From positions 1 through 57,982 of the forward strand of contig RSEE01000173.1 in assembly GCA_003971905.1 (NCBI GenBank): DNA of 57,982 nt. Reading direction: 5' to 3'. This stretch comes from Moniliella sp. 'wahieum' (lineage: Eukaryota). The notes below the pieces were generated by a model. It had not been told where the DNA came from. It worked only from the letters and a program-made list of their open reading frames with translations, and did not search any database. Position numbers and translations under genes: made by a program. Shown here piece after piece: positions 48,765 through 49,191 of the stretch; position 1 is the first letter of the stretch; each line of letters begins with the position of its first letter.

Positions 48765-49191
48765 ATGGCCATTGCCTCCACGCCTCCGCGCCATACTACG
48801 CCGTGATGTTCAGCTCGGTGCGGACGGACGTCGAGGTGGGATACGAGACGATGGCGCAGGCCATGATCAGGCTGGCACAGCGCCAGCCAGGCTTTCTTGG
48901 TGTCGAATCGGCGCGGGAGAGGCGTTCGGGATCACGGTTTCCTACTGGTCGTCTCTTGACGCCATCGCGCAGTGGCGCCAACATGCCACCCACACCATTG
49001 CCCAGCAGCGCGGACGCGACGCCTGGTACCAAACCTACACCACTCGCATCTGCCGTGTCGAGCGCGACTATACGTGGGAGAAGGAGCAGGAGCAGGAGAC
49101 GGACAAGGACAAGGACAAGGACAAGGACAAGGAAAAGGGCAAATACAAGGACAACGACGCCGAGGCGGACATGCCCGTACCAGACCACTGA
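48765..49191 (+). CDS. Antibiotic biosynthesis monooxygenase (ABM) family protein, bacterial YqjZ-like, with an acidic (DK)n tail
   Basis: MAIASTP..PYYAVMFSSVRTDVEVGYETMAQAMIRLAQRQPGFLGVESARE.FGITVSYWSSLDAIAQWRQHATHTIAQQRGRDAWYQTYTTRICRVERDY. Two 1-nt frameshifts, no intron. Confidence 0.88.

Follow-up and report, generated by a model that had tools for sequence, protein, structure and literature searches.

An intronless gene of the bacterial YqjZ type, coding for a small protein of the ABM family, sits among the chromosomal genes of a smut-related fungus, and transfer from a bacterium is very probably the best reading of its presence there. The window analysed comprises 57,982 nucleotides and is the whole of contig C173, drawn from an assembly of 69.5 Mb in 223 contigs (G000). 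In the window copy an ATG at 48765 is followed by a stop codon at 49189-49191, and the family's motif string is spread across three reading frames through two single-base gaps. A search of the same assembly returned exactly two matches to the gene, namely the window copy and a 96% identical copy on contig C39 (L002:1408-1815, minus strand), which forms an uninterrupted intronless ORF of 135 codons (product P0036). P0036 scores 29.1 bits against PF03992 (cut-off 23.1) and so belongs to the ABM family, as compared with a maximum of 13.7 bits for the fragments of the window copy alone. Its only sequence match in the PDB at E<=1 is YqjZ of B. subtilis (2go8; E=6e-34 with a single sequence), and a profile search made YqjZ the clear nearest neighbour (E 7e-47, the next entry being at 0.04). 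In an NCBIfam scan no family came close to its cut-off. The initial annotation had proposed an intronless ABM domain of about 105 residues bearing this motif string, and residues 1-106 of P0036, intact on C39, bear this out. The features of the locus are collected in Table 1.

Table 1. Features of the ABM locus in the window (contig C173)
Feature	Position	Strand	Remarks
YqjZ-type ABM gene	48765..49191	+	intronless; two 1-bp gaps on C173, intact on C39
Gap 1	48784..48789, near 48785	+	one base fewer than C39 (run of three on C39), from copy alignment
Gap 2	48916..48921, near 48918	+	one base fewer than C39, from copy alignment
ABM domain, P0036 residues 1-106	48765..49080	+	ferredoxin-like alpha+beta barrel; F16 and H77 family-invariant
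Charged low-complexity tail	49081..49188	+	EQ and DK repeats; beyond the end of the nearest bacterial proteins
Start context	48741..48768	+	A at -3, G at +4, C-rich leader; Kozak-like
COG3_N match of divergent COG3 gene	47508..47846	-	E=1e-12; probable start 48148; frameshifted in both copies
PXA match of convergent neighbour	51327..51476	-	23.6 bits, below the cut-off of 27; gene runs towards the ABM stop
Spacer between COG3 and ABM start codons	48149..48764	.	616 bp; no donor-like remnant found

Nearly the entire window is colinear with C39, at 92-95% identity except for 86-87% at about 19-29 kb. Within 28857-57982 (29 kb) there are 794 substitutions between the two contigs, as well as 498 indels running in both directions, of which 337 involve a single base; per kb, the non-triplet indels number 7.0 in one copy and 8.8 in the other. 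The regions of five neighbouring genes together hold 93 non-triplet indels, of which 33 fall in the COG3 region, as against 5 triplet ones; frame breaks affect COG3, the TPR gene and further genes in both copies. A working genome could hardly bear such an indel load, and we therefore consider the assembly to be unpolished. With a rate of about 7 per kb that also strikes housekeeping genes, errors of assembly most likely account for both single-base gaps in the ABM gene (near 48785 and near 48918). One may ask whether, with the transfer real, the window copy is nonetheless a genuine pseudogene allele and function rests with the C39 copy, since the window copy combines two frame-breaking gaps with a Met at the nearly invariant position I15. 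We regard this as very unlikely: the window-wide rate predicts 2.9 gaps in the gene and 2 are seen, the neighbouring genes are equally broken in both copies, and the copies differ more by silent than by replacement changes (5 versus 3 over 104 codons; pN/pS 0.19, p=0.02, on small numbers). Overall, the two copies of the gene have 12 substitutions in 427 bp, the same rate as their flanks.

Some features of the window lie outside the gene itself. Between 20000 and 29000 the GC content is lower (mostly 47-56%), long ORFs are few and identity between the copies is 86-87%; judged from its sequence, this is perhaps a decayed repeat region, and short tandem duplications of 7 bp are numerous at 27-30 kb. 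A gene for an NRPS-like adenylation-thiolation-reductase protein (AMP-binding, PP-binding, NAD_binding_4), frameshifted too, lies on the plus strand at 30707-33291, and an array of about 26 copies of an 18-bp unit at 8218-8685 probably codes for a charged repeat.

The setting of the gene is that of a fungal chromosome. Both contigs have the same order of genes, with a divergent COG3, the ABM gene, a convergent PXA-like gene and a PQ-loop-like gene, and a COG3_N match upstream of the ABM gene confirms the divergent orientation proposed in the initial annotation. A pattern search predicted intron-like GT..CTRAY..CAG segments shared by the two copies (46498-46547, 53461-53520 and 56107-56158), in agreement with the earlier argument that intron-bearing eukaryotic neighbours speak against contamination. 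A Sub2 fragment encoded in the window matches proteins of Jaminaea, Tilletia, Tilletiopsis and Ceraceosorus at 84-85% identity, other matches reaching 87-91%, and on these sequence comparisons the host is a member of the Ustilaginomycotina (smut-related fungi). The ABM gene is thus physically linked to host genes at the level of the assembly, on two colinear contigs. Since the COG3-ABM-PXA joins are known from the assembly alone, bacterial contamination or a chimeric join has to be weighed, and we find it extremely improbable. The gene occupies the same site in two separately assembled contigs, where its copies have diverged like their flanks; C39 is a 620-kb contig that also bears a 5.8S rRNA gene; and the flanks are devoid of bacterial neighbour sequence, the best blastn hit of the ABM flanks to 160 bacterial and metagenome loci having an E of 0.04, and tblastn returning no match for donor remnants. 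Finally, the silent sites are saturated with respect to all bacteria compared.

With regard to ribosomal DNA, 30 of 40 scored candidates in the assembly matched 5.8S rRNA (for example C39:604568-604718, L093), on many contigs and often near their ends, a distribution that suggests, from sequence positions, that rDNA lies at the ends of many chromosomes. Judged by eye, ITS1 is only about 90 and ITS2 only about 130 bases long, both being very short.

The closest relatives of the gene are bacterial. Among the best 120 of 7999 protein matches identity was 62-71%, and the 10 with an organism name were all bacterial; orthologues in smut relatives below about 62% could lie outside these 120, as well as outside the best 150 of 2162 cluster matches considered below. 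The best 80 loci in GTDB were 55-68% identical, and a metagenome scan gave 80 loci at 56-69%, none of them close to the fungal gene. In a quick tree of 96 rows the gene lies inside a 23-row clade (SH-aLRT 99) that includes three loci of Acidobacteriaceae (Terracidiphilus among them), Pandoraea and 18 database proteins. A 204-row tree recovered a comparable clade (SH-aLRT 93), in which the fungal gene has a long terminal branch and is held by no starred branch. The sister group, and with it the putative donor, differs from tree to tree. At four-fold degenerate sites, 9-13 of 36-38 positions were identical to seven of the relatives and 20 of 36 to one; silent sites are thus near saturation, which argues for an old transfer. 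GC at third codon positions was uninformative on transfer (0.83 for the gene, 0.69-0.79 for the host and 0.70-0.84 for donors).

The Pandoraea homologue (P0075) carries the UniRef name 'JEMB protein', a name that may be linked to the jemB of Tn10. Plasmid records with homologues (including H31-H40) numbered 499, all under 60% identity, many being enterobacterial at about 32%.

Eukaryotic homologues also exist. When 30 relative proteins were looked up, three clusters had an organism, namely Acidobacteriota, Flavobacteriales and the chytrid Gaertneriomyces. The chytrid homologue, present in two species (P0233 and P0503) and 47% identical, was found among 20 eukaryote-looking or extended representatives taken from the best 150 of 2162 clusters; judged by eye, some further homologues among these 20 look algal or eukaryotic-extended. 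One could argue that the gene is of ancient fungal or eukaryotic origin and survives in chytrids and in this fungus after loss from most lineages, its bacterial likeness reflecting slow evolution. Constrained topologies were compared by the AU test in IQ-TREE (LG+G4) on 50 of the 96 rows, the 46 dropped rows including long branches and near-copies. A clade of fungus plus chytrid was compatible with the data (p=0.288), which, like the chytrid gene and the extended homologues themselves, speaks for vertical descent. A single clade of all ten putative eukaryotic rows was rejected (p=0.029), and in the best tree of the 50 rows a branch with support 93.6/96 parts the fungal gene from the chytrid and eight eukaryote-looking rows. 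The fungal protein is moreover 67-71% identical to bacterial proteins versus 47% to the chytrid one, its gene has no intron, and its domain ends about where the bacterial stop codon stands. The initial annotation had named a broad fungal distribution with a tree matching the species phylogeny as the observation that would tell against transfer; the best trees are bacterial in placement, but a chytrid homologue is present and its grouping with the fungal gene is not rejected by the AU test. Given this result and possible hidden orthologues in smut relatives, vertical descent with many losses retains a small share of our belief and is, on balance, unlikely. The transfer itself, first suggested in the initial annotation together with the later gain of a low-complexity tail, is supported by the bacterial nearest relatives, the nested trees and the conserved locus.

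Four further proteins (P0179, P0181, P0206 and P0212) are of the YqjZ type, carry extensions of low complexity, group together in a single clade (SH-aLRT 87) and appear eukaryotic by eye; they may represent another capture of the family.

Two ends of the gene would bear the mark of the host. An A at position -3 and a G at +4 are the rule in a Kozak-type start context, such as precedes the fungal ABM gene, whereas a purine-rich Shine-Dalgarno-like stretch lies ahead of four of the six nearest bacterial genes and is missing here. At the other end, the six nearest bacterial proteins that were checked terminate 3-5 residues past ERDY, where the fungal tail begins. The tail contains a GGACAA hexamer array of 9.7 copies (49101-49158), which corroborates the microsatellite origin assigned to it beforehand, and between the two copies its repeat length varies in frame, by 3 and 18 bp. 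Hexamer arrays being frequent across C173, the tail is typical of the host. We thus envisage that an ancestor of this Ustilaginomycotina host would have taken up one yqjZ-type gene from a soil bacterium of a clade rich in Acidobacteriaceae and Burkholderiaceae, and that the gene would have been inserted between COG3 and the PXA gene prior to the divergence of the two segment copies. There it would have acquired a eukaryote-type start context, and its ORF would have run on beyond the former stop codon and through a hexamer repeat, giving the DK tail. We consider this course of events as a whole, from uptake and insertion to start gain and tail extension, with the gaps as assembly errors, to be highly probable.

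Transfers of ABM genes into fungi have already been catalogued in bulk. A survey of 750 fungi lists 20,093 prokaryote-derived genes, 56% of them intronless, and at least 37 fungal rows of its supplementary file 3 have 'antibiotic biosynthesis monooxygenase' as best match, one of them being a Moniliella genome with Asaia as best match at 60.4% (PMC11708051). YqjZ, JEMB, Terracidiphilus and Pandoraea are named in no row among 14,928 of the 20,093 in that file. The Moniliella/Asaia row may concern another ABM type, for example the unrelated one that we observed in this assembly at four places (L088-L091, on G000:C1, C78, C74 and C5). This second type gave no BLAST alignment to P0036 and has an apparent intron by eye; its nearest Atlas clusters are all bacterial, at scores of only 0.85-0.86, and from its sequence it is possibly another, older transfer. 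Among the papers listed by our literature searches, which covered YqjZ, fungal ABM transfer, transfer in Moniliella, HmoA and HmoB, SnoaB, jemB of Tn10, and Ustilaginomycotina with Acidobacteria, none described the present gene, and the papers listed for YqjZ offered no function for that protein. What the present case adds is one well-anchored transfer, which shows how a transferred gene gains a host-style start and a repeat-derived tail. It would weigh more if a substrate were found.

The fold model of P0036 (pLDDT 86.5) has the beta-alpha-beta-beta-alpha-beta order of the family, with strands at 11-20, 44-52, 55-62 and 89-99. Its best structural match is 2go8 (Foldseek E 6.5e-10; Z 14.6; rmsd 1.1 A over 87 residues), followed by uncharacterised ABM proteins, SnoaB, RslO4 and LsrG, all top matches being dimeric alpha+beta barrels. 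A homodimer was predicted with a score of 0.84 against 0.02 for the best control, the runs agreeing in at least 98% of contacts with pLDDT of at least 86; among reference cases, 20 of 30 solved pairs and 1 of 23 single chains attained the pass mark, and the homodimer score may reflect memory of 2go8. The same caution applies to the predicted contacts 50-50 and 98-98, which fit the beta2-beta2/beta4-beta4 (type-2) packing described for YqjZ, a non-heme protein (PMC4835899). Across 95 aligned homologues, F16 (95/95) and H77 are invariant, with near-invariance at Y27, S60, W62, W71, W88, Y89 and R95; as judged by the parity of strand positions and by register in the model, the conserved residues would line one cleft.

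A function can be proposed for the protein. A cytosolic homodimer would form a YqjZ-like type-2 alpha+beta barrel, each subunit having a cleft between sheet and helices with F16, Y27, S60, W62, W71, H77, W88 and Y89, in which H77 could serve as the acid/base group in the cofactor-free conversion of a small compound, either aromatic or with a reactive carbonyl, as part of chemical detoxification. We favour this cofactor-free, detoxifying, homodimeric enzyme, though tentatively, as its dimer, cleft residues, chemistry and role alike would follow from models and comparisons. Fusion partners were found in 15 of 20 long homologues scanned (GNAT in 5, GST in 2, glyoxalase in 2 and six others). The neighbours of the bacterial genes were varied and revealed no conserved operon (109 of 154 crudely picked ORFs scanned, 75 with a Pfam match, without a background control), so that the detoxification role would draw on weak guilt by association.

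Two other functions deserve consideration. The protein could be a monooxygenase that binds or degrades heme, as the automatic JGI label 'heme-degrading monooxygenase HmoA' of many matches would have it; in favour of this are its single invariant His and a Trp that aligns to the helix Trp of MhuD. IsdG enzymes require an N-W-H catalytic triad (PMC5557675); residues 1-106 of P0036 contain no Asn, the beta1 site being occupied by F, and therefore both this triad and the Asn pair of SnoaB and RslO4 are absent. The family profile meets MhuD and HmoB only at E 0.04-0.7, no heme or iron gene occurs among the 75 identified neighbours (109 scanned), and the classification of YqjZ as non-heme (PMC4835899) points the same way. 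We judge a heme function improbable, and would caution against the widespread 'heme-degrading HmoA' label, for which the YqjZ-type subfamily offers no support. From the initial placement in a YqjZ-like ABM/heme-degrading subfamily, the likeness to YqjZ stands and the heme-degrading part lacks support. Somewhat less remote, and still rather unlikely in our view, is a role in binding small molecules without catalysis, or in sensing stress, in the manner of ArqI of P. aeruginosa, since ABM domains can work in this way (PMC12274486) and fusions to GNAT, GST and glyoxalase are frequent. ArqI, however, is LsrG-like, only 12% identical in the structural match, and an invariant His with conserved Trp and Tyr residues would better fit a catalytic pocket. 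It is possible, at a low level of confidence, that the YqjZ type constitutes an undescribed cofactor-free class, with a pocket centred on His77 unlike that of IsdG or SnoaB, captured independently by eukaryotes several times. If so, the captures would comprise a smut relative, chytrids and eukaryote-looking lineages, as of an enzyme useful enough to be taken repeatedly, and the lone fungal copy, under purifying selection, would give a direct handle on the substrate of the YqjZ family.

Among known systems, the uncharacterised ABM-family protein YqjZ (2go8) shares with the fungal protein the conserved F, W and H and the predicted type-2 dimer packing; the fungal protein differs in being encoded on a fungal chromosome and in its charged tail of 27-34 residues. 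Homologues of Acidobacteriaceae type are closer to it (63-67%) than is YqjZ, for which the structural match gives 53%. The genes of Terracidiphilus/Acidobacteriaceae MAGs and of Pandoraea (L008, L009, L011, L022, L046 and L077), at this 63-67% identity, have the same N-terminus and fall in the same clade; one of them (L008) is flanked by RNase HII and, judged by eye, an rplS-like ORF, a context that has no counterpart at the fungal locus. The cofactor-independent monooxygenases SnoaB and RslO4 have the same fold (Z 13.2-13.4), and in the inferred register W62 corresponds to their Trp ending beta3, but identity is 10-15% and their two catalytic Asn (PMC8093152) are replaced by F16 and probably T58; their Asn-Asn-Trp site is lacking, as F16 stands opposite N18 of SnoaB and N7 of RslO4 (from range offsets). 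IsdG, MhuD and HmoB share the ABM fold and the aligned helix Trp, whereas the fungal protein is devoid of Asn, has its His six residues past the Trp and is predicted to pack in the type-2 rather than the type-1 manner. Gaertneriomyces (P0233 and P0503) likewise has a YqjZ-type ABM gene in a fungus, but it lies elsewhere in the best trees and, on this sequence evidence, is probably a separate acquisition.
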